A stretch of DNA of 64,000 nt from Acidimicrobiaceae bacterium (GTDB lineage: Bacteria; Actinomycetota; Acidimicrobiia; Acidimicrobiales; Bog-793): the NCBI GenBank assembly GCA_027335685.1, contig DAHWHN010000034.1, positions 3,241 through 67,240 of the forward strand, read 5' to 3'. Below the pieces are notes generated by a model. The model was not told the DNA's origin, did no database searches, and saw only the letters and a program-made list of their open reading frames with translations. Below, one piece after another: positions 1,391-37,360 of this stretch (position 1 is its first letter; every line of letters starts with the position of its first letter). Made by a program: the position numbers and the translations under genes.

Positions 1391-2578
1391 TCAACGCGCC
1401 GCGCCTGCGTCCTGGCTGCCGGCGCGTACCCAGCCGGCGAGGTCCTTGAGGCGCGGGTCGTTCGAGAAGACCTCGAAGGTGCCGAGGCCGAGCCCGAGGC
1501 GCCGCTGCAGCCGCTCGAGGGCGAGCTGCTGGTCCCAGAGCACGAGCGTCACGACGATCCCGCTCTCGCCCGCCCGCGCGGTCCGCCCCGAGCGGTGGAG
1601 GTAGGCCTTGTGGTCCTCCGGCGGGTCGTAGTGGACGACGACGTCGACGCCGTCGATGTCGAGGCCGCGTGCCGCGACGTCCGTCGCGACGAGGGTCCCG
1701 AGCTTGCCGGTCGCGAAGTCGCCGAGCCCCCGCTCGCGCAGGCCCTGCCGCAGGTCGCCGTGGATCGCTGCGGCGCGCACGCCGTTCTCGCGCATCTCGG
1801 CGACGAGGCGGTCGACGCCGCGTTTCGTGCGGACGAAAAAGAGCGACTTCTCCGCGCCGAGCGCGATCGACGACGCGACCTTTGCCTTGTCGAGCTGGTG
1901 GACCTTCAAGAACAGGTGGTCCATCCGGTCCACCGTCACGTTGCTCGACTGGATCTCCTGGAAGACCGGGTCGCGCAGGTAGCGCCTGACGAGCTGGTCG
2001 ACGGCCGAGTCGAGGGTCGCGGAGAACAGCAGGGTCTGGCGGTCCGCGGTCATGTGCCGGAGCAGCCACTCGACCTGCGGCATGAAGCCCATGTCCGCCA
2101 TCCGGTCCGCCTCGTCGACGACGAGCGTGGTGACGTGCGAGAGGTCGATCGCCCTGCGGTCGACGACGTCGATGAGGCGCCCGGGCGTCGCGACGACGAC
2201 GTCGAGCCCGCGCTCGATCGTGCGGACCTGCTTGTCGAGGTCCGCCCCGCCGTAGACGGCACCGACCCTCCGGTCGATCGAGGCGCCGAGAGGCTCGAGG
2301 ACCTCGGTGACCTGGACGGCGAGCTCGCGGGTCGGCACGATGACGAGCGACAGCGGTCGGCTCGCGGCGGCGCGTGGTGTACGCATGAGCATCGGCAGCC
2401 CGAACGCGAGCGTCTTGCCGGACCCGGTCTTGGCCTTGCCGCACACGTCCCGGCCGGCGAGCGCGTCGGGGATCGTGAGCGCCTGGACGGCGAAGGGCGT
2501 CTCGATGCCGGCCGCCTGCAGGCAGGCGACGAGCCGCGGGTCGACGCCGAGGTCGGCAAAGGACGGGAGCGCGCTCAT
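1391..2578 (-). CDS. DEAD-box ATP-dependent RNA helicase
   Basis: Has SFADLGV...TPFAVQ (Q-motif region), AKTGSGKT (Walker A), VVDEADRM (DEAD box), SAT and HRSGRTARAG. ATG at 2578 (MSALPSFADLG) preferred over the ORF-track start at 2713. Confidence 0.9.
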   Translation of the reverse strand: MSALPSFADLGVDPRLVACLQAAGIETPFAVQALTIPDALAGRDVCGKAKTGSGKTLAFGLPMLMRTPRAAASRPLSLVIVPTRELAVQVTEVLEPLGASIDRRVGAVYGGADLDKQVRTIERGLDVVVATPGRLIDVVDRRAIDLSHVTTLVVDEADRMADMGFMPQVEWLLRHMTADRQTLLFSATLDSAVDQLVRRYLRDPVFQEIQSSNVTVDRMDHLFLKVHQLDKAKVASSIALGAEKSLFFVRTKRGVDRLVAEMRENGVRAAAIHGDLRQGLRERGLGDFATGKLGTLVATDVAARGLDIDGVDVVVHYDPPEDHKAYLHRSGRTARAGESGIVVTLVLWDQQLALERLQRRLGLGLGTFEVFSNDPRLKDLAGWVRAGSQDAGAAR

Positions 2579-2672
2579 CAGGTCAAGTGTGCCACCTTGG
2601 GGGGAGGGCTGGTCGGCGTGTGTATCCTCCGTCCGCGTGGCGCGTTGCGCGCCGCAGTCTGGAGGGGTGCCG

Positions 2673-3137
2673 ATGGCCAAGCTCGCAGCCGGAGACGATG
2701 CTCCCGCCTTCACCTTGCCCGACCAGGACGGCGTGGCGGTGTCGCTCGCCGACGTCGCCGGGAGCCGGGTCGTCCTCTATTTCTACCCGGCAGACGACAC
2801 GCCGGGTTGCACGAAAGAGGCGTGCCAGTTCAACGACCGGCTGGCCGAGTTCTCGCGATCGGGCGTCGAGGTCCTCGGGATCTCGCCGGACGGGGACGAG
2901 TCGCACCGGGCGTTCCGCGAGCGCTACGGCCTCGGTGTGCGCCTGCTGACCGATGGCGACCACGCGGTGATGGGGCGCTACGGCGCCTGGGGCGAGAAGA
3001 CGCTCTACGGCCGCACGTCCGTCGGCGTCATCCGCTCGACGTTCCTCGTCGGTCCCGACGGCCGCGTCGAGCGCGCCTGGTACAACGTGCGGGCGGACGG
3101 CCATGCGGCAAAGGTGCTCGAGATCGTGAAGGGCTGA
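2673..3137 (+). CDS. bcp: thioredoxin-dependent thiol peroxidase (BCP/PrxQ peroxiredoxin)
   Basis: APAFTLPDQDG...VVLYFYPADDTPGCTKEAC is the peroxidatic-Cys motif. ATG at 2673 is preceded by GGAGGGG at 2661-2667. Confidence 0.9.
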   Translation: MAKLAAGDDAPAFTLPDQDGVAVSLADVAGSRVVLYFYPADDTPGCTKEACQFNDRLAEFSRSGVEVLGISPDGDESHRAFRERYGLGVRLLTDGDHAVMGRYGAWGEKTLYGRTSVGVIRSTFLVGPDGRVERAWYNVRADGHAAKVLEIVKG

Positions 3138-3141
3138 GGCC

Positions 3142-4260
3142 GTGCCGCCGGAGAAGCCCCAGTGGCGGGAGCTGTTCGCGGAGGTCGTGACGACCGGAGC
3201 GTGCACGGGGTGCGCCGCCTGCGTCGTGACGTGCCCCTACGACGTCCTCGGCTACGACGACGCCGACGGCGTGTACCGGCCGTTCCACGTCGCGCAGGAC
3301 GGGGGAGCCGACGACTGCACGCACGGCCAGCGCGGCTGCACGCTGTGCACGCGGGCGTGCCCGCGCTTTCGCGCCTGGGAGCCGGAGATCGACCAGCACC
3401 TGTTCGGGCGGGTGCGCGCGGAGGACGAGGTGGCGGGCATCAGCCGGGAAGTCGTGCTCGCGCGCGCGACGGACCCGGAGCTGCTCGCGGCGGGCCAGGA
3501 CGGCGGGCTCGTCTCGGCGCTGCTCGTCTACGCCCTCGAGCACGACGTGATCGACGCCGCGCTCGTCTCCTACCTCGAGGGCGACGGCACGACGTGGAAG
3601 GCGATCCCCGGAGTCGCCCGGACGAGGTCCGAGGTCCTCGCGGCGGCGGGCTCCCGGTACACCTACTCGGCGAACACCCTCGCGTACTCCGAGGCCCTCG
3701 CCGCGGGTGCCGAGCGCCTCGGGCTCGTCGGCATGGGCTGCCAGGCCTCGGCGCCGGGCGCGATGGCGGCGCGCAAGGCCGGCAAGGTCGCGCGCCGGTT
3801 CCAGCTCACGATCGGGCTGCTCTGCTCGAAGACCTTCGACGACGCCATCTTCCCCGAGCTGTTCGAGGCCCGCTACGGCCTCGCGCGGGCCGAGATCTCG
3901 AAGATGAACATCAAGGGCGTGTTCCAGGTCTGGATGCGCGACGGCAGCTACCACGAGGTCCCGCTGAAGCACGCGCGGGACTGGACCCGCGAGGGCTGCC
4001 TTAAGTGCCCGGACTTCGCCGCCGAGCACGCGGACGTCTCGGCGGGCGGGATCGGTGCGTTCGGGGACTGGACGCTCACCCTGGTCCGGACCGAGAAGGG
4101 CGCGGACCTGCTCGCGGCGATGGCCGCGGACGGGGCGATCGAGACGCGGCCGGTGGGCGACGATCCTGGCGTCCTCCCGCTTCTCGAGAAGCTCTCGAAC
4201 GTGAGCAGAAAGCGCGGACCGGGCACGACGCGGCGGATGATCCCCGTCGGGACGGGCTGA
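3142..4260 (+). CDS. FrhB/FdhB-family protein (coenzyme F420 hydrogenase/dehydrogenase beta-subunit-like) with an N-terminal 2x[4Fe-4S] ferredoxin domain
   Basis: CTGCAACVVTCP and C..GCTLCTRACP cluster motifs, followed by FrhB-type blocks GQDGGLVSALLVYALEHDVIDAALV, GMGCQASA, IGLLCSKTF and CLKCPDFAAEHADVSAGGIG. GTG start lies 4 nt after the bcp stop. Confidence 0.8.
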   Translation: MPPEKPQWRELFAEVVTTGACTGCAACVVTCPYDVLGYDDADGVYRPFHVAQDGGADDCTHGQRGCTLCTRACPRFRAWEPEIDQHLFGRVRAEDEVAGISREVVLARATDPELLAAGQDGGLVSALLVYALEHDVIDAALVSYLEGDGTTWKAIPGVARTRSEVLAAAGSRYTYSANTLAYSEALAAGAERLGLVGMGCQASAPGAMAARKAGKVARRFQLTIGLLCSKTFDDAIFPELFEARYGLARAEISKMNIKGVFQVWMRDGSYHEVPLKHARDWTREGCLKCPDFAAEHADVSAGGIGAFGDWTLTLVRTEKGADLLAAMAADGAIETRPVGDDPGVLPLLEKLSNVSRKRGPGTTRRMIPVGTG

Positions 4261-4322
4261 GCCGCCACCGGGCCACCACCGGGCCGCGGCCGGCCGGTCC
4301 GGGCCACGCTACGTTGGGCGCC

Positions 4323-5003
4323 ATGGCCACTCGCACCCCGGCAGGCGCGCGACCGACCGTCGTGTGCTTCGTGCGGCACGGCACGACGCCGACCACAGGC
4401 AAGATCCTTCCCGGTCGGGCCAAGGGCCTGCATCTCGCGGAGAGCGGCCTCGCCGAGGCCGACCGCGCCGGAGCCCGGCTCGCCGGCATCGGACCGGTCG
4501 CCGCCCTCTACTGCTCGCCGCTCGAGCGCGCCCGCGAGACGGCCAAGGCCATCGCGCGCCACCTCGCCGTCGCCGTCACGGTCGAGCGTGGGCTGCTCGA
4601 GTGCGACTTCGGGGAGTGGACCGGAGCCGAGCTGGCGGCGCTGCGCAAGCTGCCCGAGTGGGACGCGGTCATCCACCACCCGTCCGGCTTCCGCTTTCCC
4701 GGGGGCGAGTCGTTCGTCGAGCTGCAGGGGCGGATGGCGGCGGCGGTCGAGCGGCTCGTCGAGCGCCACCGGGGCCAGACCGTGGTCGCCGTGTCGCATG
4801 CCGATCCAATCAAGATCGCGGTCGGCGACGCGATGGGCGTGCCGCTCGACCTCGTCCAGCGGACGGTCGTCTCGCCGTGCTCGGTGAGCGTCGTGAGCTA
4901 CGCCCCGGGTGGGCCGGCGGTGCTCGCGGTCAACTCGACCGGCGAGCTGTCCGCTCTCGGCATCGCGGCGAGCGCGCCGGGCGAGCGGGGCAGGCAGGCA
5001 TGA
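4323..5003 (+). CDS. histidine phosphatase (PGAM) superfamily protein, MSMEG_4193-type putative phosphomutase
   Basis: VCFVRHGTT (RHG catalytic motif), SPLERARETA and VAVSHADPIK. ATG at 4323 is residue 107 of the ORF-track ORF; the upstream part is an Arg-rich shadow. Confidence 0.8.
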   Translation: MATRTPAGARPTVVCFVRHGTTPTTGKILPGRAKGLHLAESGLAEADRAGARLAGIGPVAALYCSPLERARETAKAIARHLAVAVTVERGLLECDFGEWTGAELAALRKLPEWDAVIHHPSGFRFPGGESFVELQGRMAAAVERLVERHRGQTVVAVSHADPIKIAVGDAMGVPLDLVQRTVVSPCSVSVVSYAPGGPAVLAVNSTGELSALGIAASAPGERGRQA

Positions 5004-5503
5004 GCGTGTCCTACGAGTTCGACGCCCCGGACGCGGTGACCGTCGGCACGATCGGGCCCGTCGGTTCTCGCGTCTTCCTCCTCCAGGCGCGCGAGGGGTC
5101 GTCGGTCGTGACGATGAAGGTCGAGAAGCAGCAGGTCGGTGCGTTGTCGACGCTCCTCGGACGGCTGCTGCAGGATCTCGCCCGCCCGGGCGAGCTCGAC
5201 GAGAGCGACCTCGCGCTCGACGAGCTCGACGAGCCGTCCTTCGTCGTCGGCGCGCTCGCCGTCTCCTACGACGCCGACGCCGACAGGGTGGTCCTGCTCG
5301 CCGAGGAGCTCGTCGGGGAGGACGACCCCCCCGGGGACGACGCACGCCTCGCGCTGACCCGTGAGCAGGCGGCGGCGCTCGCGATCCAGGGCGCGCGCCT
5401 CGTCGACGCCGGCCGCCCACCGTGTCCGCTGTGCGGGTACCCGCTCGATCCGCGAGGTCACGCGTGCCCGAGGACGAACGGACACCACGCGCCGCTGACG
5501 TGA
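5000..5503 (+). CDS. DUF3090-family protein (conserved actinobacterial, function unknown)
   Basis: MSVSYEFDAPDAVTVGTIGPVGSRVFLLQA... with a C-terminal CPLCGYPLDPRGHACPRTNGH zinc-ribbon-like motif. Its ATG overlaps the upstream stop (ATGA). Confidence 0.75.
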   Translation: MSVSYEFDAPDAVTVGTIGPVGSRVFLLQAREGSSVVTMKVEKQQVGALSTLLGRLLQDLARPGELDESDLALDELDEPSFVVGALAVSYDADADRVVLLAEELVGEDDPPGDDARLALTREQAAALAIQGARLVDAGRPPCPLCGYPLDPRGHACPRTNGHHAPLT

Positions 5504-6228
5504 CGGGCGGCCCGGCCGACAGCCGTCGATCCCGCAACTGGCTCGACGTGCTCGAGGCCGGGGACATCACGGTCGAGGGCCGGATGCCGTGGAGCTCGAA
5601 CGCGACCTTGCTCGTCACGGTCGAGCTTGCCGGCTGCACGACGAGGGCCATCTACAAGCCGGCCGCCGGCGAGCAACCTCTGTGGGACTTCCCCGACGGG
5701 CTCTACCGCCGGGAGGTCGCCGCCTACGAGCTCTCCGTCGCGTGCGGCTTGGGCGTGGTCCCGGAGACGGTGCTGCGGGCCGAGGCGCCGTACGGGGTCG
5801 GGTCGCTCCAGAGGTTCGTCGACGCGGACTTCTCCCAGCACTACTTCACCCTTCTCGAGGATTCCGCCCACGCGTCGGCGCTGCGGCTCGTCGCAGGGTT
5901 CGACCTGCTCGCCAACAACGCCGACCGCAAGGGCGGGCACGTGCTCGTCGACAGCGAGGGGCACGTCTGGGGCATCGACAACGGGCTGTGCTTCCACCCG
6001 GATCCGAAGCTGAGGACGGTCATGTGGGACTTCGCCGGCGAGGAGCTCCCCGCGGCCGTCCTCGACGCCTGCGCCGCAGTCGCGCGCCACGTGCCCGACC
6101 GCCTCGAGCCGCTCCTCGCGCGCGACGAGCTCGACGGGCTCGTACGGCGCGCCGCGGAGCTCCTCGAGTCGAGGACGTTCCCCGAGCCGGACCTCGACGG
6201 CCGCCCCTACCCCTGGCCCCTCGTCTGA
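5500..6228 (+). CDS. SCO1664-family protein (PI3/PI4-kinase-like fold, function unknown)
   Basis: LLANNADRKGGHVLV (catalytic-loop-like DRxxxH) and WGIDNGLCFH (DFG-like IDNG). GTG at 5500 overlaps the DUF3090 stop (GTGA). Confidence 0.75.
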   Translation: MTGGPADSRRSRNWLDVLEAGDITVEGRMPWSSNATLLVTVELAGCTTRAIYKPAAGEQPLWDFPDGLYRREVAAYELSVACGLGVVPETVLRAEAPYGVGSLQRFVDADFSQHYFTLLEDSAHASALRLVAGFDLLANNADRKGGHVLVDSEGHVWGIDNGLCFHPDPKLRTVMWDFAGEELPAAVLDACAAVARHVPDRLEPLLARDELDGLVRRAAELLESRTFPEPDLDGRPYPWPLV

Positions 6229-6264
6229 CCGGTCTCGGCCACCGGGCGGGCTGTCGACCGCCAC

Positions 6265-6301
6265 GACGCGCGGACCGGGACGCGCGGACCGGGACGCGCG
6301 G
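6265..6301. repeat. 14-bp direct tandem repeat (gacgcgcggaccgg x2 plus a 9-nt partial copy)
   Basis: Read directly: 6265-6278 and 6279-6292 are identical, and 6293-6301 repeats the first 9 nt. Intergenic, just downstream of the SCO1664-family gene. Confidence 0.9.
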
Positions 6302-6329
6302 CGGTAGGGGTCCGGGCGATCCTTCGCCG

Positions 6330-6980
6330 ATGACCCCGTCGACACCGACACCACCGCACGCACCGAGGGCGCCGTACACACCGGGAGTGCCGTACACGCC
6401 CGGCACGTCCGGCTCGCCGGTCCCGGCAGGCCCGCTCTCGGCGGCCCCCGAGGCGAGATCCGCGGGACCGGCACGGCTGTTCGCCGAGAGCGCCCTGCTG
6501 CGCGGCGAGGACGTCATGGCCGTCGTCGAGGTCCTCGACGCCGTCGCGTCGCGTCGGGCGCACGTCAGGTGGCGCGCGGCGCGCGGCCGAGCGGCTCCGG
6601 GCAGTCGCCCAGCCCGAGCGGGTCACCGAGACCACCGAGGCCGCCCGGACGGCACGGGCCTCCCGGACCGCGTGGCACGGGCGATCGCTGCCCGCCTCGC
6701 CCCGACCGCCGGTCTCGTGCCCCCGCTGGGTTGGCGCGCCGCCGGAGCTGCCGGCACGGGCCGTAGCCGCCGGTCAACGCTGGGCGCGGCAGCTGTCGCC
6801 ATTCCCCGCGGCGAGGCGCTCGACCTCGTCGCCGACCTCGTCGACCTCGCCGACCACCTCGCCCGCGAGGGCGCCCGCCTCGAGTCCCTCGCCGTCGAGG
6901 CAGCCGCTGGTCGGGTGCTCGAGTCCCTGCTCGGAGCAGGCGCGTTCGAGGTGGGCCGGTCCGCAGCGCCGTCCTCGTGA
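6330..6980 (+). CDS. hypothetical Pro/Ala/Arg-rich protein; frame uncertain
   Basis: ATG-initiated tail of ORF 5589..6980. The N-terminus has PYTPG repeats. Third-position GC is convincing at 6460-6540 and 6800-6980 but drops in the middle, where another frame scores higher by hand count. No recognisable domain. Confidence 0.25.
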   Translation: MTPSTPTPPHAPRAPYTPGVPYTPGTSGSPVPAGPLSAAPEARSAGPARLFAESALLRGEDVMAVVEVLDAVASRRAHVRWRAARGRAAPGSRPARAGHRDHRGRPDGTGLPDRVARAIAARLAPTAGLVPPLGWRAAGAAGTGRSRRSTLGAAAVAIPRGEALDLVADLVDLADHLAREGARLESLAVEAAAGRVLESLLGAGAFEVGRSAAPSS

Positions 6981-7052
6981 CGGCTAGCCGGCGGTCGAGG
7001 ATCTTCACGCGACTGCAACCGGGCCGCGGCGGCGTCGTCGTCGCGGTCGGGC

Positions 7053-7487
7053 ATGATCTCGGTCGTGGAACTACGAGAGATCACCTCGACCGAGACCGGT
7101 ATGGCGGCGTCGGAGGGCCGCTCGCCTGTCGGCGACCGTGTCGCCGGTGGCGTCCGGACCGCCCCGCACCTGCTCGACGCGGCGGTCGACGCCCCGGAGT
7201 TCGTCGTGCTCGAGTCCTGCCACTCGACGTGGATGTTCGATCCGGACAACAAGCGTTTCTGCCGCGTCCTGAAAGGTCCTCTCGGCTCGTCGTCGGTCGC
7301 CACCGAGTGGCGGGCCTACGACCGCCTCGTGCTGCACCCGGAGTCGGATGCCTTCGTCGTCTTCCTCGACGCGTCCGGGACGCGCCTGCTCCGGTCCTGG
7401 CGCCACACGGCGCACTGCGACCAGTGCGGGGGCGAGGTCACGGCCGAGCTGTCCCTCGCCGACCTGCGGCGGGTCACCCGAGCCTGA
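7053..7487 (+). CDS. hypothetical protein (Cys/His/Trp-containing, conserved-looking)
   Basis: 144-aa ORF with consistently high third-position GC. Contains CHSTWMFDPDNKRFCRV and HTAHCDQCGG motifs. An alternative start exists at ATG 7101. Confidence 0.55.
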   Translation: MISVVELREITSTETGMAASEGRSPVGDRVAGGVRTAPHLLDAAVDAPEFVVLESCHSTWMFDPDNKRFCRVLKGPLGSSSVATEWRAYDRLVLHPESDAFVVFLDASGTRLLRSWRHTAHCDQCGGEVTAELSLADLRRVTRA

Positions 7488-7550
7488 GCGGCGGCGCTCG
7501 GCCGCCTGGGCGGCGCACCGGCCGCGCGCCGCGACCCTAGGATCGCGTCG

Positions 7551-8060
7551 ATGACCGACCGCACAGACGACAGCGCCCAGTTCCTCCTCGTCCCCGGTGG
7601 TGACGAGGACGCGCGAGCCGGAGGCCAGCAGTCCTCGGACGAGGCCGAGCGCGGGACGGAGTCGGTCGAGCAGCCGGCGAAGGTCATGCGCGTCGGCTCG
7701 ATGATCAAGCAGCTGCTCGAAGAGGTGCGCCAGGCGCCCCTCGACGGGCCGAGCCGGCAGCGGATGAAGGAGATCTACGAGAGCTCGGTCCGCGAGCTCG
7801 CCGACGGGCTCTCCCCGGACCTCGTCGACGAGCTCGACCGGCTCGCGCTGCCGTTCTCCTCGGACGAGCCGAGCGACGCGGAGATCCGCCTCGCCCAGGC
7901 CCAGCTCGTCGGCTGGCTCGAAGGGCTCTTCCACGGCATCCAGGCGACGCTGTTCGCCCAGCAGATGGCGGCACGCGCCCAGCTCGAAGAGATGCGGCGG
8001 CGCAGCCTGCCCGCGGGCGGCGGCGCGGACGCTCCGGGTCGACCTGGTCCGTACCTCTAG
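7551..8060 (+). CDS. bpa: bacterial proteasome activator (Bpa/PafE family, DUF2587)
   Basis: Core KVMRVGSMIKQLLEEVRQAPLD...LPFS...SDAEIRLAQAQLVGWLEGLFHGIQATLFAQQMAARAQLEEMRR closely matches my recollection of mycobacterial Bpa. The C-terminus ends ...GPYL (a YL-type proteasome docking tail). Confidence 0.8.
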   Translation: MTDRTDDSAQFLLVPGGDEDARAGGQQSSDEAERGTESVEQPAKVMRVGSMIKQLLEEVRQAPLDGPSRQRMKEIYESSVRELADGLSPDLVDELDRLALPFSSDEPSDAEIRLAQAQLVGWLEGLFHGIQATLFAQQMAARAQLEEMRRRSLPAGGGADAPGRPGPYL

Positions 8061-8210
8061 CCCGGACGACCCGCCCCGGCTCGACTTGCCCGGGTCCGGC
8101 CGGGTCGTCGCCGGTCGGCGTCGCGCTATCCTCGCCGGGGGCGGATCACAGTGATGTAGTTCGTCCACAGCAGTGGATAACGCATGTGGACGAGCTGTGG
8201 AGGCGCGTTG

Positions 8211-11200
8211 ATGGCTGGGCCCGGAGCGGGACGTCGGGCAAGGTCCTTTGCCCACCTGCACCAGCACACCGAGTACTCGATGCTCGACGGCGCGGCGAGG
8301 ATCAAGGACGCCGTCGCCCTCGCGGTCGAAGACGGCCAGCCGGCGATGGCGATCACCGACCACGGCAACATGTACGGCGTCCTCGACTTCTACAAGGAGT
8401 GCCGAGCCCAGGGGGTCACCCCGATCATCGGCACCGAGGCGTACATGGCCGGCAGCTCGCGCTTCGACCGGCCCGTGCGGCGCGGCCGCCTCGACGACAC
8501 CGGGGGCGAGGGCGAACGCGGCGAGAAGCTCTACTACCACCTGACGCTGCTGGCCGAGACGACGGCGGGCTACCGCAACCTCATGCAGCTCTCCTCGTCG
8601 GCCTACCTCGAGGGCTACTACTACAAGCCGCGCGTCGACTGGGAGCTGCTCGAGGCGCACCACGAGGGCCTCGTCGCGACGACGGGATGCCTCGGTGGCG
8701 TCGTCCTCCAGGCCCTGCTCGCGGAGCAGCCCGACGAGGCCAAGCGCCTCGCCGCGCGGCTCCAGGACATCTTCGGCCGGGACAACCTCTTCGTCGAGCT
8801 CCAGGACCACGGTCTTGCCGAGCAGCGCCGGACGAACCCGCAGCTGCTCGAGATCGCGCGCACGATCGGGGCGCCGATCGTCGCGACGAACGACAGCCAC
8901 TACTGCCGGCGCTCCGACGCCGTCGCGCACGACGCCCTGCTCTGCGTCCAGACGGGTGCGACGATCGACGACCCGAAGCGCTTCAAGTTCGGCGGCGAGG
9001 AGCACTACCTGAAGACGGCGGCGGAGATGCGCGAGCTCTTCGCCGAGCTGCCCGAGGCGTGCGACTCGACCCTGTGGATCGCCGAGCGCGCGAACGTCGA
9101 GATCGAGCTCGGCAAGCCGACGCTGCCGGAGTTCCCCGTCCCCGAGGAGTTCCGCCGGGCGACCTACGAGGAGTCGGCGCAGCAGTACCTGCGCCACCTC
9201 ACCTTGGTCGGTGCCCGCGAGCGCTACGGCGAGCAGCTCCCGCCCGAGGTCGCCGAGCGCATCGACTACGAGCTCGGGGTCATCAACGCGATGGGCTTCC
9301 CGGCGTACTTCCTCGTCGTGTGGGACCTCATCGCGCATGCCCGCCGCTCGGGCATCCGGGTCGGTCCCGGGCGAGGCTCGGCTGCCGGCTGCTGCGTCGC
9401 GTACTGCCTGCGCATCGTCGACCTCGACCCGATCCGCTACGACCTGTTGTTCGAGCGCTTCCTCAACCCCGGCCGCAAGCAGATGCCGGACATCGACATG
9501 GACTTCGACGAGCGCTACCGCGGCGAGATGATCCGGTACGCGTCCGAGCGCTACGGGTGGGACCGCGTCGCGCAGATCGTCACGTTCTCGACGATCAAGG
9601 CGCGGGCCGCTGTGCGCGACGCCGCGCGGGTCCTCGGCTACCCGTACGGCCTCGGCGACAAGGTCGCGAAGGCCATGCCGCCGCTCATCATGGGACGCGA
9701 CACGCCGCTCAGCGCGTGCCTCGAGAAGGTGGACGGCTTCGAGGACGGCTACGCGGCCGCGGCCAGCCTGCGCGAGATGTATGAGGCGGAGCCCGACGCC
9801 CGCAAGGTCATCGACGTGGCTCGGGGCCTCGAGAACCTGAGGCGCCAGGACGGCATCCACGCCGCGGCGGTCGTCATCACGCACGAGCCGCTCACGCAGT
9901 ACCTGCCGATCCAGCGCAAGCCCGAGCCCGGCGCCGACCCGGCGGACGCGCCGATCGTCACGCAGTACGAGATGCACGGCGTCGAGGAGCTCGGCCTTTT
10001 GAAGATGGACTTCCTCGGCCTGAGGAACCTGTCGGTGATCGAGAGGGCGCTCGACCTCGTCGAGGAGCGCACGGGGAGCCGACCCGACATCGACGCGGTC
10101 CCGCTCGACGACGAGCGGACGTTCGAGATGCTCCGCAGCGGCGACTCGATCGGGGTGTTCCAGCTCGAGGGCGGACCGATGCGGTCGCTGATGCGCTCGC
10201 TCGCCCCGACGACCTTCGACGACGTCGCTGCCCTCGTCGCCCTCTACCGGCCCGGTCCGATGGCGGCGAACATGCACCGGGACTACGCGGATCGCAAGAA
10301 CGGCCGGAAGCCGGTCACCTACCTGCACCCCGATCTCGAGCCGATCCTCGCCGACACCTACGGTCTCATGATCTACCAGGAGTCGGTCATGCGCGTCGCG
10401 CAGCGCTTTGCCGGCTACAGCCTCGAAGAAGCCGATAATCTGCGCAAGGCGTGTGGAAAGAAGAACCGCGTCCTCATTGCGGCGGAGCGCGAGAAGTTCG
10501 TGAAGGGCTGCGTCGAGCAGGGGTTCGGCGAGAAGATCGGCACGGCGCTGTTCGACATCATCGAGCCCTTCGCCGACTACGCGTTCAACAAGTCGCACTC
10601 CTACGGCTACGGGCTCGTCGCCTACCAGACGGCGTGGTTGAAGGCGAACCACCCGGTCGAGTACCTCGCCGCGCTGCTGTCGTCGGTGAAGGACGACAAG
10701 GACAAGACCGCCGTCTACCTGTCGGAGTGCCGCAGCCTCGGCATAGCCGTCCACGTCCCCGACGTGAACGTCTCGATGTCGAACTTCACCGCGCGACCGC
10801 CTGCGCCGGGCGAGAGCGGCATCGGCACGATCCCCTTCGGGCTCTCCGCGATCCGCAACGTCGGCGAGGGGCTCGTCGCGCAGATCGTCGCCGAGCGGGA
10901 GGCCAACGGCCCCTTCGAGGACTTCCACGACTTCTGCTGCCGGGTGGATCCCTCCGTGCTGAACAAGAGGACGGTCGAGTCGCTCGTCAAGGCGGGAGCC
11001 TTCGACTCCGTCGGGCACCCGCGCAAGGGCCTGTGCCTGGTCTTCGAGGAGATCATCGACCGCGTCCTCACGAGACGGCGCGAGGAGGAGCTCGGGATCT
11101 CCACCTTGTTCTCGCTGCTCGAGCCGAGCCCGGCAGCGGTCGGGGTGGGCGCCTACGAGGAGGCCCGCGTCCTCGTGCCCGAGGTCGAGTTCTCGAAGGC

Positions 11201-11846
11201 CGAGCGCCTGACCTACGAGAAGGAGATGCTCGGGCTGTACGTCAGCGACCACCCGCTCCTCGGCGTCGAGGCGGCGCTTCGCCGGCTCGCCGAGGTGAGC
11301 ATCCGCGAGCTGCTCGACCAGGCGACCCAGGGCGGCGACGTCGGCACGGGAGCGGGCGGCGACCAGCTGGGGATGCATCTCGTCGGCGGCGTCGTCACCG
11401 CGCTGTCGAAGCGCTACACCAAGCGCGGCGACCTCATGGCGACGTTCGTGCTCGAGGACCTGGAAGCCGCCGTCGAGGTCTTCGTGTTCCCGAAGGTCAT
11501 GGCCGAGTACGGGGGCCGGCTCGAGGAGGACGCGATCGTGCTCGTCCGCGGCCGGCTCGACCAGCGTGACGACCAGGCCAAGCTCGTCTGCTCCGAGGTG
11601 CGCCGGCCCGAGCTCGTGGCCGACGACACGGCGCTGCCGATCGAGGTGAGCGTGCCGCCGGGGGCGCTGACCGAGTCGACGGTCCAGCGGCTGCGCGAGC
11701 TCGTCGTCGAGCATCCCGGTCCCGTTCCGGTGCACCTGCGGCTCGGCGCGAAGGTCCTGCGCCTGCCGTCGGAGTTCAACGTCGACCCCCGGAGCGGCTT
11801 CGTCGGCGCGCTGAAGGAGCTGCTCGGAGCCCACGCGGTCGGCTAG
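8211..11846 (+). CDS. dnaE: DNA polymerase III subunit alpha
   Basis: FAHLHQHTEYSMLDGA (PHP domain), then LTLLAET..GYRNL, and polymerase core motifs through the C-terminal OB-fold region. ATG at 8211 sits 7 nt after GGAGG (8199-8203). Confidence 0.95.
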   Translation: MAGPGAGRRARSFAHLHQHTEYSMLDGAARIKDAVALAVEDGQPAMAITDHGNMYGVLDFYKECRAQGVTPIIGTEAYMAGSSRFDRPVRRGRLDDTGGEGERGEKLYYHLTLLAETTAGYRNLMQLSSSAYLEGYYYKPRVDWELLEAHHEGLVATTGCLGGVVLQALLAEQPDEAKRLAARLQDIFGRDNLFVELQDHGLAEQRRTNPQLLEIARTIGAPIVATNDSHYCRRSDAVAHDALLCVQTGATIDDPKRFKFGGEEHYLKTAAEMRELFAELPEACDSTLWIAERANVEIELGKPTLPEFPVPEEFRRATYEESAQQYLRHLTLVGARERYGEQLPPEVAERIDYELGVINAMGFPAYFLVVWDLIAHARRSGIRVGPGRGSAAGCCVAYCLRIVDLDPIRYDLLFERFLNPGRKQMPDIDMDFDERYRGEMIRYASERYGWDRVAQIVTFSTIKARAAVRDAARVLGYPYGLGDKVAKAMPPLIMGRDTPLSACLEKVDGFEDGYAAAASLREMYEAEPDARKVIDVARGLENLRRQDGIHAAAVVITHEPLTQYLPIQRKPEPGADPADAPIVTQYEMHGVEELGLLKMDFLGLRNLSVIERALDLVEERTGSRPDIDAVPLDDERTFEMLRSGDSIGVFQLEGGPMRSLMRSLAPTTFDDVAALVALYRPGPMAANMHRDYADRKNGRKPVTYLHPDLEPILADTYGLMIYQESVMRVAQRFAGYSLEEADNLRKACGKKNRVLIAAEREKFVKGCVEQGFGEKIGTALFDIIEPFADYAFNKSHSYGYGLVAYQTAWLKANHPVEYLAALLSSVKDDKDKTAVYLSECRSLGIAVHVPDVNVSMSNFTARPPAPGESGIGTIPFGLSAIRNVGEGLVAQIVAEREANGPFEDFHDFCCRVDPSVLNKRTVESLVKAGAFDSVGHPRKGLCLVFEEIIDRVLTRRREEELGISTLFSLLEPSPAAVGVGAYEEARVLVPEVEFSKAERLTYEKEMLGLYVSDHPLLGVEAALRRLAEVSIRELLDQATQGGDVGTGAGGDQLGMHLVGGVVTALSKRYTKRGDLMATFVLEDLEAAVEVFVFPKVMAEYGGRLEEDAIVLVRGRLDQRDDQAKLVCSEVRRPELVADDTALPIEVSVPPGALTESTVQRLRELVVEHPGPVPVHLRLGAKVLRLPSEFNVDPRSGFVGALKELLGAHAVG

Positions 11847-13564: not shown

Positions 13565-13568
<4 letters not shown>
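12801..13568 (-). CDS. hypothetical protein, co-oriented with and overlapping the upstream thioredoxin-domain gene
   Basis: 255-aa ORF whose start overlaps the stop of the 13565..15688 gene by 4 nt. Good third-position GC. No recognised motif. Confidence 0.55.
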
Positions 13569-15688
<2,120 letters not shown>

Positions 15689-16098
15689 GCCCTCAACCTA
15701 GCGGCCGGTCCCCAGGGCGCTCGTCGTGCTCCCCGCCACCTCGACGCACCACGCGACAACGCGCGAACGGACTATCGAGCGTCCGGGCGACGGCGCCGTA
15801 GGGAGGGCATGACTGCAGACGACGTACGTGGCGGAAGGCTCGGGGACGGCGGCGCGGCGGACGGGCTCGACGTCGCGGTCGACGCGCTCGTGCTCGCCAT
15901 CTTCGGTCTCGAGCACCATCTTTCGACCTGCTGTTGCCTGGCACGGCGGTGCGGGACGCAGGTCGAGGAGCGCGCCGCGCTGTCGGGTCTCGACGGTGCG
16001 CTCGCTCTGGCCGAGCACCTGTGCAGCGCCGCCCGCGCGAGCCTCGCTCGGGGCGGCAGGCTCGCGGACCACGTCTGATCCGCGAGCCCTGGCCCGCA

Positions 16099-24772: not shown

Positions 24773-27700
24773 GTGCACGTCGACGTCGCAAGCGTGGAGG
24801 GCCGCGTCCGCCGGCTGCTCGAGGAGCGGTTGCGGCCGGCCGTGCGCCGGGACGCGGTCGCCTGCGCGGTCGGTGCGTTCGTCGTCGACGGCGAGCCGGT
24901 CGTCCCGGCGGTCGGGATCGGCGCGGACTACCAGCCCATCGCCCCGGGCACGCCGTGGGGGCGCCCGTGGGGCACGACGTGGCTGCGCGTCGCCGGGCGC
25001 GTCCCGCCGGCGTGGTCCGGCCGGCGCGTCGAGCTCGTCGTCGACCTCGGCTTCGGTCCGCAGAGCCCCGGATTCCAGGCCGAGGGCCTCGTCTTCGACG
25101 AGTCGGGGGTGCCCGTGACGGGCATCGCGCCCCGCAACGACACGGTGCCGCTCGAGCTCCTCGGAGCCGGAGCCGGCGACGACGTGCTCGTCTACGTCGA
25201 GGCGGCGTCGAACCCCGCCGTGATGGGTGCCGGCGACAGCTTCGCGCCGACCCGTGCCGGCGACCGTGCGACTGCCGGGACCGATCCGCTGTACCGGCTC
25301 GGCCGCATCGAGCTCTGCACCGTCGACGAGGAGCTCGACGGGCTGTGCCTCGACGTCGAGGTCCTCGTCGGGCTGGCGGCGCAGCTCGAGGCGCACGACC
25401 CGCGCCAGGCGGCGCTCTGGCGTGCGCTCGACCAGATGGCCGACGCCGTCGACCTCGACGACGTGCCGGGCAGCGCGCGCGCTGCGCGAGCGGAGCTCGC
25501 CGAGGTGCTCGCGAGCCCGGCACATGCCAGCGCGCACCGGGTGACGGCGGTCGGCCATGCGCACATCGACTCGGCGTGGCTCTGGCCCGTGCGCGAGACG
25601 GTCCGCAAGTGCGCGCGCACCTTCGCGAACGTCCTCTCGCTCGCCGAGCGCCACCCCGAGCTCGTCTTCGCCTGTTCCCAGGCCCAGCAGTACGCGGGGG
25701 TGCGCGACGGCTACCCGGAGCTGTTCGAGCGGGTGCGCGCACGGGTGCGGACCGGCCAGTGGGTGCCCGTCGGGGGGACCTGGGTCGAGCCCGACGGCAA
25801 CCTGTGCGGCAGCGAGGCGCTTGCTCGCCAGCTCGTCCTCGGTCGCCGGTTCTTCGCGGACGAGCTCGGCGTCGAGTGACCCGAGGTGTGGCTTCCGGAC
25901 TCGTTCGGCTACAGCGCCGCCTGGCCGCAGCTCGCCCGGCTCGCAGGCGCGCGCTATTTCCTAACCCAGAAGCTCTCGTGGAACCAGACGAACGTCTTCC
26001 CCCACTCGACTTTTCTCTGGGAAGGCATCGACGGGACCCGGATCCTCACGCATTTCCCGCCGGTGGCGACGTACAACGCGGAGCTCTCGCCCGAGGAGCT
26101 CGCACGCGCGTCGCGCGGCGACACCGTGCACGGCCGCGGCACGCGCTCGCTCGTCCCGTTCGGCTACGGCGACGGCGGGGGAGGGCCGACCCACGAGATG
26201 CTCGAGCGGGCAGCCCGCCAGCGGGACCTCGAGGGATCGCCCCGGGTCGAGGTCGCATCTCCCGCGACGTTCTTTCGCGAGGTCGAGGAAGAGCAGGCCG
26301 AGCTCCCCGTCTGGTCCGGCGAGCTCTACCTCGAGCTCCACCGGGGAACCTTCACCTCCCAGGCGCGGCTCAAGCGGGCGAACCGCCGGTGCGAGCACCT
26401 GCTGCGCGAGGCCGAGCTGTGGTGGACGGCAGTGCTCGTCGCCGGGCTGGGGGAGTACCCCGACGCCGACCTCGACAGCTGCTGGAAGACACTGCTGCTC
26501 CAGCAGTTCCACGACATCTTGCCGGGCAGCTCGATCGCGTGGGTGAACGACGACGCCGCCGCTGCATACGCCGGGCTCGAGGAGCACCTCGAGGAGCTCG
26601 TCGGCACCGCTCTGTCGCTGCTGACCGGGCCGGGGGACGACGCCGTGGCGTGCAACGCGGGTCCCTTCGCGCTCTCCGGCGTGCCCGCCCTCGGCGCCGC
26701 CCCGCTCGCCGCCCCCGCTCCCGGCCCGGGCGTGACGATCGGCCCGGGCGATACGCCCGGCTCGCTCGTGCTCGACAACGGGCTCGTGCGGCTCGGGCTC
26801 GTCGCCGCGGGCCTGCTCGCGTCGGTCCGCGACCTCGTGGAGGACCGCGAGCTCGTCGCGCCGGGGTGCCGCGCGAACCTGCTCCAGCTCCACCGCGACC
26901 TGCCGAACCGCTGGGGCGCCTGGGACGTCGACGCCTTCTACCGCCGGTCCGTCGTCGACCTCGACGCGTGCGACGCCGTCGAGGTCGTCGAGGACGGTCC
27001 GGCACAGGTCGTCGTCGAGGTCCGCCGGAGCTTCGGCGCGCGCGGCGCGTCGCGAGCGGTCCAGCGTGTCCGCCTGCGTGCGCTCGAGCGCCGCGTCGAG
27101 CTCGAGACCGAGGTCGACTGGCAGGAGGACGAGAAGCTGCTCAAGCTCGCCTTCCCCGTCGACGTACGGGCCGAGTGGACGAGCGCGGAGATCCAGTACG
27201 GTCACGTCCGACGGCCCCTGCACGTCAACACCTCGTGGGACGCGGCACGCTTCGAGGTCGTCATGCACCGCTTCGTCCACCTCGGGGAGGACGGCTACGG
27301 CGTCGCGCTCGCGAGCGACAGCACCTACGGCTACGACGCGACGCGCACGACGCGTCCCGACGGCGGCACGACGACGACCGTGCGGCTGTCGCTCGTGCGC
27401 GGTCCGCGCTTTCCCGACCCTCGGGCCGACCACGGCCACCACAGGTTCGGCGTCATGCTCGCGCCCGGTGCCACGACAAGGGGCGCGGTCGCCGAGGGGT
27501 ACCGCGCCAACCTGCCCCTGCGGGTCGTCACGGGCCGCTCAGGCGTCGCGCCGGTCGTGGCGGTCGACGACGGGGGCCGCGGCGCCGTCGTCGTCGAAGC
27601 CGTCAAGGCTGCCGACGACCGCTCGGGCGCTGTGGTCGTGCGCCTCTACGAGGCGCTCGGCGGCCGGGTGCGCGCACTGCTGACGCCCGGCTTTCCTGCA

Positions 27701-27838
27701 GTGTCGGCCGCGCGCGCCGACCTGCTCGAGCGGCCCCTCGCAGGTGGCGAGCTGGCACGAGACGACCAGGGCGGCTTCGCGCTCGAGCTGCGCCCGTTCG
27801 AGGTCGTGACCGTCGTCCTGCGCCGCCCGCCGGCCTGA
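24773..27838 (+). pseudogene. GH38 alpha-mannosidase interrupted by a single in-frame TGA at 25877-25879
   Basis: ORFs 23429..25879 and 25886..27838 are in the same frame. Reading across the stop gives ...FFADELGVE*PEVWLPDSFGYSAAWPQL..., which splits the metal-binding HAHIDSAWLW region from the conserved WLPDxFGY nucleophile motif. GTG at 24773 (MHVDVASVEGR...) follows GGGAGG. Confidence 0.85.
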
Positions 27839-27908: not shown

Positions 27909-28349
27909 ATGCCGTTGACCGGGGAGTACGTGCCGAGCACCGAGAAGTGGGTGCGGGACCAGGTGGCGCTCTACGAAGGCTCGGGGGGTCTCGAGGGGAC
28001 GACGCTGCGCGGGATGCCGGTGGTCGTCGTCACGAGCCGGGGGGCCCGTACAGGCAAGCTGCGCAAGACGCCGCTGATGCGCGTCGAGCACGAGGGGCGC
28101 TACGCGCTCGTCGCGTCGAAGGGCGGCGCGCCGACGCACCCGGTGTGGTACTACAACCTGCTCGTCGATCCCCGCATCGAGCTGCGGGACGGGCCGTCGG
28201 TCTGGGACATGGTCGTTCGCGTCGTGGACGGTGACGAGCGCGCCACCTGGTGGGAGAGGGCGGTCGCCGCGTACCCGGACTACGCGAGCTACCAGGACAA
28301 GACCGAGCGGGAGATCCCGGTCTTCGTCGCGGAGCCCGCCACCGCCTGA
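27909..28349 (+). CDS. deazaflavin (F420)-dependent oxidoreductase, nitroreductase/DDN family
   Basis: [55 protein letters not shown] matches the DDN/PNPOx-like split-barrel family pattern. Confidence 0.85.
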
Positions 28350-34433: not shown

Positions 34434-35942
34434 CTAGGACGACGGGGCGAGCATCCCCTCGCGGACCGCGCCGAGCTGGCGCGCGGTCGGCTCGGCGCAG
34501 CAGAACCACGCCTCGCTCAGGTGCGGCCGTTGCACGGCCCCGCCCGGCGTGGCGGCCGCCGGCGCGCCCGGGTCGGCGAGGCCGAGGCCGGTGAACACCG
34601 TCGAGCGCACGGCGTCGTAGGCCGCGCGAGCGCTCCAGCCGTGGCAGGCCGCCTGCTCGGTCGTCGCGGCGACCGCGGCCTGGACTGCGTCGAGGAGCGG
34701 GTCCGGTGACTGCCAGGTCCAACCGAGGGCGTCGGGGTCGAAGCTGCCGAGGGCGCCCGCGAGCACCGGGTCCGGGTCGCGCAGGAGCAGCGAGCCCGGA
34801 GGCAGGAGCAGCCGGATCCCGTACTGCACCGCGTCGACGCTGTCGACGAGGTCGTGGCGCGCCACGAAGTCGAGCAGCTCGACGAGGTCCTCACGACGCG
34901 TCCAGGGCGTGAAGGGCAGGAACGACGGCCTCGGCTCGATCCCCGCTGCCCGAAGCACGGCGACCGCCTCGGCGGCCTCGGCAGCCGTGTGGCCCTTGTC
35001 GAGCCGCTCGAGCACGGTCGCGCTCGTCGACTCGAAGGCGGACACGACGAACGAGCAGCCCGACTCGCCCATCTGCGCGACGACGTCTCGGTGGGCGAGG
35101 ATGTGGCTCACCTTGACGGTCGCGTCGAAGCTCACGTCGGGGAAGTGGGCGTGCAGGGCCGCGACGACCCGGGTCGCGTGCCGCGGGCGGTTGAGGAAGT
35201 CCGGGTCGCCGAGGTGGATGTGCCCGGCGCCGGAGGCGACGAGCTGGGCGACGTCGGCGAGAACCTCGCCGACCGGCACGGCGCGTGTCCGCCCGTCGTA
35301 GACGGTCGGGACCGGGCAGTGCCGGCACCGGTGCGAGCAGCCCCTGCTCGCCTCGACAGCGCCGACGAGGCGGTCGGGACCCTGGCCGACGAGGCGCGTG
35401 TAGCGCTCGAGCGGTGGCACGAGCGAGCGGTCCGGCACGCCGTCGAGCGCCGTAGTGCCGGACGGTGTCGTGCCGGACGGTGTCGTGCCGGACGGTGCGG
35501 CCCAGCCCGGCCGGACGTCGGAGCTGCGCGGCCCGATCTCGACGCGCACGACCGGGCCGTGCGGTCTCCCGGCAGGTGCCGGTTCGCGCAGGGCTGCGAC
35601 CCAGTCGACCAGCGCGCCGTCGGCGTCGCCGGCCACTGCGAGGTCCCCGTCGTGAAGCGCCGAGGCCCCGACCGGCGCGTAGAGGCCGTGCAGGGCGACG
35701 GGGAGCTCCGGACGTGCCGCCCGCACGGTGGCGAGGACCCCGAGAGCGAGGCGCAGCGCCGTGTGCATCGGCACCGAGCACACGACGGCGTCGGCCCATG
35801 ACAGGTCGTCGGGGCGGATCTGCTCGACGGCGAGGTCGCGGCCACGCAGCTCGTGGCCGGCGAGGCCGAGGGGGCGGGCAGGACCGGCGATGCCGAGCGG
35901 CTGGTGACCGAGCTCGTATGTGGAGAGCAGGAGCACGCGCAC
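34434..35942 (-). CDS. radical SAM protein with an N-terminal B12-binding-like domain and a C-terminal CCAEP tail (CUAEP/CCAEP-tail rSAM family)
   Basis: EASRGCSHRCRHCPV (CxxxCxxC SAM-cluster motif). C-terminal ...SEAWFCCAEPTARQL, with CCAEP encoded at 34488-34502. Internal (PSGTT)x3 repeat. Confidence 0.85.
   Translation of the reverse strand: MRVLLLSTYELGHQPLGIAGPARPLGLAGHELRGRDLAVEQIRPDDLSWADAVVCSVPMHTALRLALGVLATVRAARPELPVALHGLYAPVGASALHDGDLAVAGDADGALVDWVAALREPAPAGRPHGPVVRVEIGPRSSDVRPGWAAPSGTTPSGTTPSGTTALDGVPDRSLVPPLERYTRLVGQGPDRLVGAVEASRGCSHRCRHCPVPTVYDGRTRAVPVGEVLADVAQLVASGAGHIHLGDPDFLNRPRHATRVVAALHAHFPDVSFDATVKVSHILAHRDVVAQMGESGCSFVVSAFESTSATVLERLDKGHTAAEAAEAVAVLRAAGIEPRPSFLPFTPWTRREDLVELLDFVARHDLVDSVDAVQYGIRLLLPPGSLLLRDPDPVLAGALGSFDPDALGWTWQSPDPLLDAVQAAVAATTEQAACHGWSARAAYDAVRSTVFTGLGLADPGAPAAATPGGAVQRPHLSEAWFCCAEPTARQLGAVREGMLAPSS
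35455..35499. repeat. 15-bp in-frame tandem repeat x3 inside the radical SAM gene, encoding PSGTT-PSGTT-PSGTT
   Basis: gtgccggacggtgtc occurs at 35455-35469 and 35470-35484, with the third copy gtgccggacggtgcg at 35485-35499. Confidence 0.95.
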
Positions 35943-35996
35943 CGGACGAGACTAGTGAGCCCCCGCCCCCGCTCCGGTCGGTCCGCGACGCGCCCG

Positions 35997-37310: not shown

Positions 37311-37360
37311 TCCACCATCATGGCGCCGGCGCGCTGTCGCCTGGCCGGTAGGATGCCCCC

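Follow-up and report, generated by a model that had tools for sequence, protein, structure and literature searches.

The question raised by the locus considered here is whether five closely spaced genes of one strand constitute a single pathway or combine two units of different nature. The genes occupy positions 2673-6228 of a 64,000-nucleotide stretch of contig DAHWHN010000034.1 from an Acidimicrobiaceae bacterium (assembly GCA_027335685.1), and the whole of this 64-kb stretch is referred to below as the window. The first two genes encode a peroxiredoxin (bcp) and an FrhB-like Fe-S flavoprotein, and the following three, termed the trio, encode a histidine phosphatase, a DUF3090 protein and a protein resembling phosphatidylinositol (PI) 3/4-kinases. 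An earlier note on this DNA had deduced a redox-connected pathway from the tight linkage of the two groups. Our analysis makes it moderately probable that bcp with the frhB-like gene on the one side and the trio on the other represent two separate units, which are neighbours by descent and do not form one pathway; the claim of a redox pathway shared by the trio, bcp and frhB probably arises as a by-product of how the genes are ordered. The trio is read here, as the favoured interpretation, as an autonomous phospho-switch or phospho-metabolite module. This view draws on protein families, catalytic motifs, predicted folds, gene overlaps, a promoter-like element and neighbourhood statistics. The trio is counted among the 'signature' gene sets of Actinobacteria and is present in Mycobacterium tuberculosis as Rv2133c-Rv2135c, so a solid functional lead would be useful.

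Organization of the gene row

All five genes are located on the forward strand. The gene of the bcp/PrxQ-type thioredoxin-dependent thiol peroxidase (2673-3137; 154 aa, stop codon TGA) is preceded by GGAGG 8 nt 5' of its ATG, as read from the sequence, and is separated by 4 nt (ggcc) from the gene of the stand-alone FrhB/FdhB-family Fe-S flavoprotein (3142-4260), which starts with GTG and encodes 372 aa. A spacer of 62 nt (4261-4322), carrying a -10-like hexamer, lies between the frhB-like gene and the ATG-initiated gene of the branch 1 histidine phosphatase of the MSMEG_4193/Rv2135c family (4323-5003; 226 aa). The latter forms an ATGA overlap with the DUF3090/TIGR03847 gene (5000-5503; ATG start, 167 aa), which in turn overlaps the PI3/4-kinase-like gene of the SCO1664 family (TIGR03843; 5464-6228). 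The start of the kinase gene is ambiguous: GTG at 5500 gives a GTGA overlap and a protein of 242 aa, and GTG at 5464, from which the identical database protein P0001 begins, gives 254 aa and an overlap of 40 nt. The overlap with the DUF3090 gene holds with either start; a start codon in the 4-nt-overlap position of the kinase gene was present in only 22 of about 85 related loci, and in many related kinase genes the start necessarily lies 10-50 nt inside the DUF3090 gene. The gene order, gaps, overlaps and motifs described in the earlier note were all recovered both among the open reading frames (ORFs) and in the raw sequence. None of the five proteins gave a defence-system match in PADLOC.

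The order and the overlaps of the trio genes are shared by the window and about 160 related loci, the 4-nt overlap between the phosphatase and DUF3090 genes (ATGA or GTGA) being kept in 64 of 83 loci. A representative search additionally retrieved a protein of 404 aa (P0438) spanning the full TIGR03848 and TIGR03847 models, which is either a fusion or the product of a frameshift. Domain fusions were found only within the trio (phosphatase with DUF3090, plus a fragment joining DUF3090 to the kinase), and they may be frameshift artefacts.

Conservation of the neighbourhood in Acidimicrobiia

The closest homologues belong to Acidimicrobiia metagenome-assembled genomes, along with one NCBI assembly encoding an identical kinase. 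A scan of one genome per species yielded 80 further loci, mostly from Acidimicrobiia, onto which the window proteins were mapped, and linkage was counted over those 65 non-redundant loci whose upstream sequence extended to 3 kb or more. The neighbourhood of the trio with bcp and frhB turned out not to be a peculiarity of one genome: the arrangement recurs in close relatives, whose kinases are 72-86% identical, and 47 of the 65 loci have a same-strand frhB-like gene upstream of the trio, the other 18 having none. Direct adjacency of frhB to the trio was observed in only 7 loci. An opposite-strand gene of uracil-DNA glycosylase (UDG) alone separates them in 9 loci, and other genes intervene in 31; these encode unrelated proteins, such as an MMPL transporter, a nitronate monooxygenase-like protein, a radical SAM protein, a thiolase, TauE and an esterase. 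The bcp gene adjoins frhB in only 6 of the 47 frhB-containing loci and lies nearby in 12, the tie between the two genes being clade-specific.

These counts bear directly on the view that all five genes serve one redox pathway, in which the kinase and the 'phosphomutase' handle a phosphorylated intermediate, with reducing power for it supplied or sensed by the FrhB-like protein and the peroxiredoxin. The recurrence of the tight same-strand row in close relatives and the upstream frhB-like gene of the 47 loci, some of them with differing outer flanks, agree with such a pathway, as do other neighbours related to thiols or oxidation, namely nei, udg, a CoA-disulfide-reductase-like gene found near the trio in three loci and, in the actinomycete-type loci described below, mshC. 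Against it stand the rarity of the frhB-trio adjacency, the opposite-strand or unrelated genes occupying this place elsewhere, and the even looser position of bcp. Moreover, clustering of the ORFs placed etfB near the trio in 41 loci and etfA in 40, compared to 42 each for frhB and UDG, and whiB, pdtaS, a gene of a diacylglycerol (DAG)-kinase-like protein and a downstream glycerophosphodiesterase gene remain in the vicinity of the trio with a frequency similar to that of frhB. Since etfAB, whiB, pdtaS and the like are retained about equally, frhB belongs to a syntenic block that is slowly decaying. The position of the trio beside bcp and frhB looks like inherited gene order within one bacterial class, and a functional link between them is weakly supported, holding only as class-level synteny.

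The compactness of the row in the window can be understood from the layout common in Acidimicrobiia, which reads DEAD(-), bcp(+), nei(-), frhB(+), udg(-), trio(+). An opposite-strand gene of a family-4/5-type UDG directly precedes the trio in most loci surveyed, as in L006, where it lies between frhB and the phosphatase gene, and more distant relatives keep the order frhB-UDG(-)-trio even where both outer flanks differ. In four loci (L024, L030, L045 and L015) an opposite-strand nei/fpg glycosylase gene directly precedes frhB, approximately 5-8 kb upstream of the kinase gene, and in the first two of them it sits between bcp and frhB. Neither nei nor udg was found anywhere in the 64-kb window, and the five-gene row is compact because the clade of the window lacks both genes at these places. 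In the common layout nei/fpg separates bcp from frhB, and udg separates frhB from the phosphatase gene; the lack of both in the clade of the window would have put the five genes together on one strand.

Promoter of the trio

The 60 nt preceding the start of the phosphatase gene were aligned across the loci, with in-gene positions serving as controls. In 44 of 79 loci, but at only 1 of 395 control positions, a TANNNT hexamer (TAGGTT, TACGGT or TACGTT) occurred 5-9 nt upstream of the start codon. Its counterpart in the window is TACGTT (4310-4315), with 7 nt between it and the ATG at 4323 and with no accompanying Shine-Dalgarno sequence. Leaderless promoters of actinobacteria are built in this way, with a -10 hexamer a few nucleotides ahead of the start codon and no Shine-Dalgarno sequence. 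The hexamer is identical in relatives with the interposed UDG gene (L006) and in those without it (L003, L007 and the window), and because this -10-like element is conserved in either situation, the trio is credited with a putative promoter of its own, which is probably a leaderless one. A conserved element of the trio's own argues further against a single pathway of five genes. As to bcp and the frhB-like gene, lying 4 nt apart, they are probably co-transcribed. Consensus scans of positions 2300-8300 revealed neither intrinsic terminators nor sigma-70 promoters, and the RNA fold of the spacer at 4261-4322 was not significant (z -1.45).

The trio outside Acidimicrobiia

A profile built from actinomycete-like DUF3090 sequences retrieved 80 metagenome loci, referred to as actinomycete-type; these loci, with a median length of only 4 kb, are close relatives of each other and carry no taxonomy. 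No homologue of frhB, bcp, UDG, Bpa or dnaE was detected in any of these 80 loci. Instead, an FHA protein is encoded in 40 of them and a PAC2 gene is located downstream in 35; in 25 of the 40 loci with enough sequence the trio is directly preceded by a same-strand gene combining DUF1707 and FHA domains (e.g., L127 8331-9113 and L133 4988-5995), the median gap being 36 nt. FHA domains bind phosphothreonine, and the FHA gene beside the trio hints at protein phosphorylation. The neighbours also include metH and, in a minority pattern confined to 10 of the 80 loci, mshC directly downstream of the trio; a close linkage of SCO1664 to mshC in actinomycetes was indicated in a review (PMC4255298). In the loci labelled as Chloroflexota or Rokubacteria the trio is embedded among entirely different neighbours, with neither frhB nor bcp near it. 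Beyond Acidimicrobiia these neighbours are mutually unrelated, comprising TruD, a Lon substrate-binding-domain protein, RarA, a homoserine dehydrogenase-like protein, GDP-mannose dehydratase, a GT39-like membrane protein and a molybdopterin oxidoreductase, and a conserved partner of the trio outside Acidimicrobiia was rejected on the ground that they share no relation.

The absence of frhB and bcp from all the actinomycete-type and Chloroflexota-labelled loci adds to the case against one redox pathway. The step from tight linkage to such a pathway, made in the earlier note, is not supported in view of adjacency in 7 of 65 loci, unrelated intervening genes, a separate -10 element and the actinomycete-type loci, and we consider the pathway decidedly improbable.

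As a separate observation, two proteasome-related neighbours of the trio occur in two lineages, Bpa in Acidimicrobiia and PAC2, resembling proteasome assembly chaperones, in the actinomycete-type loci; this may be a coincidence.

The peroxiredoxin and the FrhB-like protein

The product of bcp matches the AhpC-TSA family of Pfam (134.9 bits, E 1.9e-39), passes the equivalog test for thiol peroxidase NF006960 (145.5 bits against a cut-off of 140) and contains the segment PGCTKEAC with the peroxidatic and resolving cysteines in the C-x4-C spacing. In the FrhB-like protein both FrhB_FdhB_N (PF04422, 71.5 bits) and FrhB_FdhB_C (PF04432, 109.9 bits) exceed their cut-offs and are preceded by an N-terminal ferredoxin domain of the 2x[4Fe-4S] type (Fer4_7, 28.7 bits), whose eight cysteines are located within CTGCAACVVTCP and CTHGQRGCTLCTRACP. 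The equivalog models of FrhB (TIGR03289, 174.9 bits against 331.5) and FpoF (117.3 bits against 475) stayed far from their cut-offs, and no catalytic partner (FrhA/G, Fpo or Fdh alpha) was found beside the gene among the called genes of the related loci. Homologues of the protein, at least 120 among the matches listed, are 73-90% identical to it.

FrhB-type stand-alone Fe-S flavoproteins serve electron transfer, with Fe-S carriers on one side and F420 or flavin on the other. The window protein is likewise read as a stand-alone module for Fe-S/flavin electron transfer, with F420 as a possible cofactor. Its best solved relative, 8riu_B (E 5e-46 over residues 12-340), is an F420-reducing FrhB-like subunit on the CO dehydrogenase of the ethane-oxidising archaeon Ca. 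Ethanoperedens (PMC11493965). The gene of a DDN-family F420H2-dependent enzyme, pointed out previously at 27909-28349, was confirmed (PF04075, E 3.8e-47). It agrees with a redox pathway inasmuch as the organism encodes an F420 enzyme, being only an indirect pointer to F420 use by the FrhB-like protein; no F420-biosynthesis gene was noticed among the window ORFs scanned.

Another thiol-redox gene in the neighbourhood is that of a 710-aa thioredoxin-domain protein (13565-15697, reverse strand; Thioredox_DsbH/DUF255, E 2.2e-74), which recurs at the corresponding position in L003 and L007.

Proteins of the trio

The statement that the trio is a recognised conserved actinobacterial cassette with no assigned function is borne out by the dedicated NCBIfam models TIGR03848, TIGR03847 and TIGR03843. 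The full-text literature offered no published function for it apart from the in vitro acid phosphatase activity of Rv2135c, and no functional study of the cassette was found there under DUF3090, Rv2133c/34c/35c, MSMEG_4191-4193, SCO1664, TIGR03843/47 or ML1300. The three families correspond to Rv2135c-Rv2134c-Rv2133c of M. tuberculosis and to SCO1664 with its neighbours in Streptomyces coelicolor.

The first protein of the trio is a clear member of His_Phos_1 (PF00300, 165.4 bits against a cut-off of 21.7, E 1.6e-48) with the complete catalytic core in its translation (R18-H19-G20, R69, E93 and H159). With 197.1 bits it misses the curated cut-off of TIGR03848 (203.85) by 6.75 bits, yet this is by far its best-scoring model. 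Its nearest solved relatives are PhoE and the phosphoserine phosphatase PspA, which places it putatively closer to phosphatases than to mutases. The M. tuberculosis homologue Rv2135c was characterized as a weak acid phosphatase in vitro, with a Km of about 10 mM on generic substrates, and possessed no phosphoglycerate mutase activity (PMC3866925). The earlier argument that a kinase plus a phosphomutase implies a small-molecule intermediate is consequently not secure, given that Rv2135c lacks mutase activity (PMC3866925) and that the closest solved relatives are phosphatases.

The second protein belongs to DUF3090 (PF11290, 133.6 bits against 27, E 8.5e-39; TIGR03847, 142.8 bits against 117.25) and carries the C-terminal motif CPLCG...H-x-CPR-x-NG (CPLCG...HACP in the window), the Cys3His knuckle of which (C142, C145, H154 and C156) is invariant in 29 DUF3090 sequences. 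This knuckle site could respond to the redox state, a further point in favour of the redox pathway weighed above. The structural model (predicted local distance difference test, pLDDT, 84.7) consists of two beta-beta-beta-beta-alpha repeats followed by the knuckle, and the family is strongly acidic, with a median pI of 4.65 and a net charge of -12. No significant relative was found in the PDB at the sequence level; Mpa, a weak match (E 0.24), was dismissed. The model thus suggests an acidic two-repeat protein with a predicted zinc knuckle rather than an enzyme-like fold.

At the fold level, the DUF3090 model weakly matches the PUR-alpha repeat (E 4e-3, probability up to 0.99), with a template-modelling (TM) score of 0.42-0.50 and a high root-mean-square deviation (rmsd). 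This match raises the idea of a nucleic-acid end-processing or DNA-damage module, in which DUF3090 would bind single-stranded DNA or RNA by means of a PUR/Whirly-like fold and the knuckle, and the kinase and the phosphatase would heal the ends or signal at them. Such a role would accord with the divergently adjacent udg of most Acidimicrobiia loci, with nei/fpg nearby and with the second-best NCBIfam match of the phosphatase, which is the acid-phosphatase domain of bifunctional RNase H/acid phosphatase. The pI and charge of DUF3090, however, are atypical for nucleic-acid binding, and this function was down-weighted because the protein is so strongly acidic; the TM score of the PUR match does not exceed 0.5 and its rmsd is high, and the repair-gene neighbours are absent outside Acidimicrobiia. 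Additionally, we know of no polynucleotide kinase of the PI3/4-kinase fold and of no branch 1 histidine phosphatase acting on DNA ends. Considering these facts, the end-processing role appears extremely unlikely.

The third protein scores 261.3 bits with TIGR03843 (cut-off 172.4), and the Pfam model PI3_PI4_kinase (PF00454) covers only its catalytic segment with 24.0 bits, below the gathering threshold of 27.1; the kinase relationship accordingly rests on motifs and the predicted fold. In the numbering of the 242-aa form, the conserved residues are K53, E72, DRKGGH (142-147) and IDNG (159-162), of which D142, R143, K144, H147, D160 and G162 are invariant. The top fold matches of the model (pLDDT 84.9) are type II PI 4-kinases alpha and beta (E 1.6e-6 to 1e-5, TM 0.51-0.53), followed by Fam20C, CtkA, kinase domains of lanthipeptide synthetases and class III PI 3-kinase, so that the protein kinases Fam20C and CtkA fit nearly as well as the PI 4-kinases. 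A profile search against the PDB returned only marginal PI 4-kinase matches (PI4KA, E 0.05).

The resemblance to PI 4-kinases suggests a substrate of the inositol type. In mycothiol synthesis GlcNAc-Ins-3-P is dephosphorylated by MshA2, the gene of which, to our knowledge, was never identified, and a phosphatidylinositol phosphate (PIP) phosphatase performs a step of phosphatidylinositol synthesis. The kinase would then phosphorylate myo-inositol, GlcN-Ins or phosphatidylinositol, and the phosphatase would be either MshA2 or the PIP phosphatase. Besides the fold matches, this possibility is favoured by the linkage of SCO1664 to mshC and its counterpart in 10 actinomycete-type loci, by the reported detection of Rv2135c in membrane fractions and the adjacency of its gene to uppP (PMC3866925), and by the vacancy of the PIP phosphatase gene, the mycobacterial enzyme having still been called unidentified in July 2026 (bioRxiv 10.64898/2026.07.15.738315). 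On the other hand, EphE has been proposed as the PIP phosphatase. Among about 85 Acidimicrobiia loci, none was found with mshC at a distance of 10 kb or less from the trio, the 64-kb window contains no KMSKS or MshC-like ORF, and even among the actinomycete-type loci mshC adjacency is the exception. Furthermore, a kinase and a phosphatase acting on the same group within one coupled operon would create a futile cycle, and the role of DUF3090 is left without explanation. We therefore regard an inositol-type substrate, the main alternative to the favoured reading, as unlikely.

Proposed functioning of the two units

Under the favoured reading, bcp and the frhB-like gene would be transcribed together as the first unit, and the phosphatase, DUF3090 and the PI 4-kinase-like kinase would form the second, a leaderless operon driven by the -10 element, the end of which lies 7 nt upstream of the phosphatase ATG, its genes being translationally coupled via the overlapping stop and start codons. 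The proteins of the trio would work as one complex, with the kinase and the histidine phosphatase opposing each other in setting the phosphorylation state of a common substrate, this being either the acidic, zinc-binding DUF3090 itself or a client presented by it. A phospho-switch of this kind, acting on DUF3090 or on a bound client, is put forward tentatively, as a possibility short of an even chance.

A bolder variant is that the trio represents an actinobacteria-wide phospho-signalling switch, in which the PI 4-kinase-like kinase and the phosphatase act on or through DUF3090 and its predicted zinc site senses thiol oxidation. If true, it would explain the thiol and oxidative-stress neighbours in unrelated lineages, i.e., bcp, the frhB-like gene, nei and udg in Acidimicrobiia and mshC in actinomycetes, and would rescue the redox-connected idea in another form; nevertheless, we consider it very unlikely.

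Several observations weigh against the reading in terms of two units with a phospho-switch. The retention of frhB with the trio where both outer flanks differ (L009 and L010) could reflect selection instead of inertia. The promoter was recognized by its match to a consensus and not by a mapped transcription start, and, no terminator having been found between frhB and the phosphatase gene, read-through co-transcription may occur in the clade of the window. The lineage sampled by the actinomycete-type loci is a single and rather narrow one (60-94% identity to the query). The phospho-switch, for its part, is inferred; the PUR-like match of DUF3090 is weak, P0438 is a single fusion protein and could be a frameshift artefact, and small molecules are the substrates of the phosphatase's nearest characterised relatives.

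For the function of the trio, the analysis provides three leads: a cassette that appears self-contained, leaderless and translationally coupled, with neighbours varying by lineage; the type II PI 4-kinase-like fold of the kinase; and the acidic two-repeat zinc-knuckle character predicted for DUF3090. These leads bear on the MshA2 step of mycothiol synthesis and on the phosphatidylinositol-phosphate phosphatase step.

Other genes of the window

Just 3' of the kinase stop codon, at 6265-6300, a short tandem duplication consists of two copies of GCGCGGACCGGGAC followed by GCGCGG; the RNA fold of the region after the kinase gene was not significant (z -0.30). Two small forward-strand ORFs, at 6495-6980 (161 aa) and 7053-7487 (144 aa), separate the trio from bpa and have counterparts at the same place in L003, L006 and L007. 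No Pfam family is on record for these counterparts, and the window ORF at 7053-7487 gave no Pfam match; in the ORF at 6495-6980 an alternative start at 6331 would add a Pro/Thr-rich N-terminus. The gene of the bacterial proteasome activator Bpa follows at 7551-8060 on the forward strand (PF10759, E 2.7e-66). The dnaE gene of the window (8184-11846; 1220 aa) is free of an intein, and that of L006 (10560-15437; 1625 aa) carries one, recognized by Intein_splicing and LAGLIDADG_3. Further genes encode a GH38 alpha-mannosidase (25880-27838, forward strand), a radical SAM protein of 505 aa (34434-35951, reverse strand) and a NifU-domain protein (37352-38038, forward strand); the rest of the scanned window is of housekeeping nature, with tyrS, an RNase D-like gene, chorismate synthase and an M24 peptidase.

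Comparison with known systems

In its domain order, 2x[4Fe-4S]-FrhB_N-FrhB_C, the FrhB-like protein is similar to the FrhB-like subunits of the Ca. Ethanoperedens CO dehydrogenase and formylmethanofuran dehydrogenase (8riu_B and 8rja_E; PMC11493965), to FpoF and to the N-terminal half of Fsr. Unlike these archaeal F420-reducing subunits, it is bacterial, occurs in the context of an aerobic-type genome and has no gene of a catalytic subunit adjacent to its own.

The trio agrees with the three-gene system catalogued in NCBIfam (TIGR03848, the MSMEG_4193 family putative phosphomutase, TIGR03847 and TIGR03843) in families, gene order, overlaps and catalytic motifs, and two of the three window proteins score above the curated cut-offs; on these sequence features it is a further member of the already catalogued cassette. 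It differs in that its host belongs to Acidimicrobiia and not to actinomycetes, in its neighbours (bcp, the frhB-like gene, Bpa and dnaE, whereas the actinomycete trio is accompanied by mshC, uppP, PAC2 or FHA genes) and in the RHG motif of its phosphatase, in place of which Rv2135c of M. tuberculosis carries RHA.

With the type II PI 4-kinases PI4K2A and PI4K2B (PDB 4pla, 4wtv and 9hhm) the kinase-like protein has in common the DRxxxx loop, the DFG-like IDxG motif and the Lys and Glu of the N-lobe. The identity is, however, only 15-18% at a TM score of about 0.5, the protein is only about half as large, with neither the palmitoylation nor the membrane-insertion elements, and a His occupies the position of the catalytic-loop Asn of PI kinases.

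Finally, PknB-PstP and PrkC-PrpC are co-operonic bacterial kinase/phosphatase pairs, often with FHA-domain partners. The trio likewise combines a kinase and an opposing phosphatase in one operon, and in the actinomycete-type loci an FHA gene is often close by. Its kinase is, however, PI3/4-kinase-like rather than of the Hanks type, its phosphatase belongs to the histidine superfamily rather than to PP2C, and, unlike these Ser/Thr pairs, it includes a third obligatory partner, the zinc-knuckle protein.

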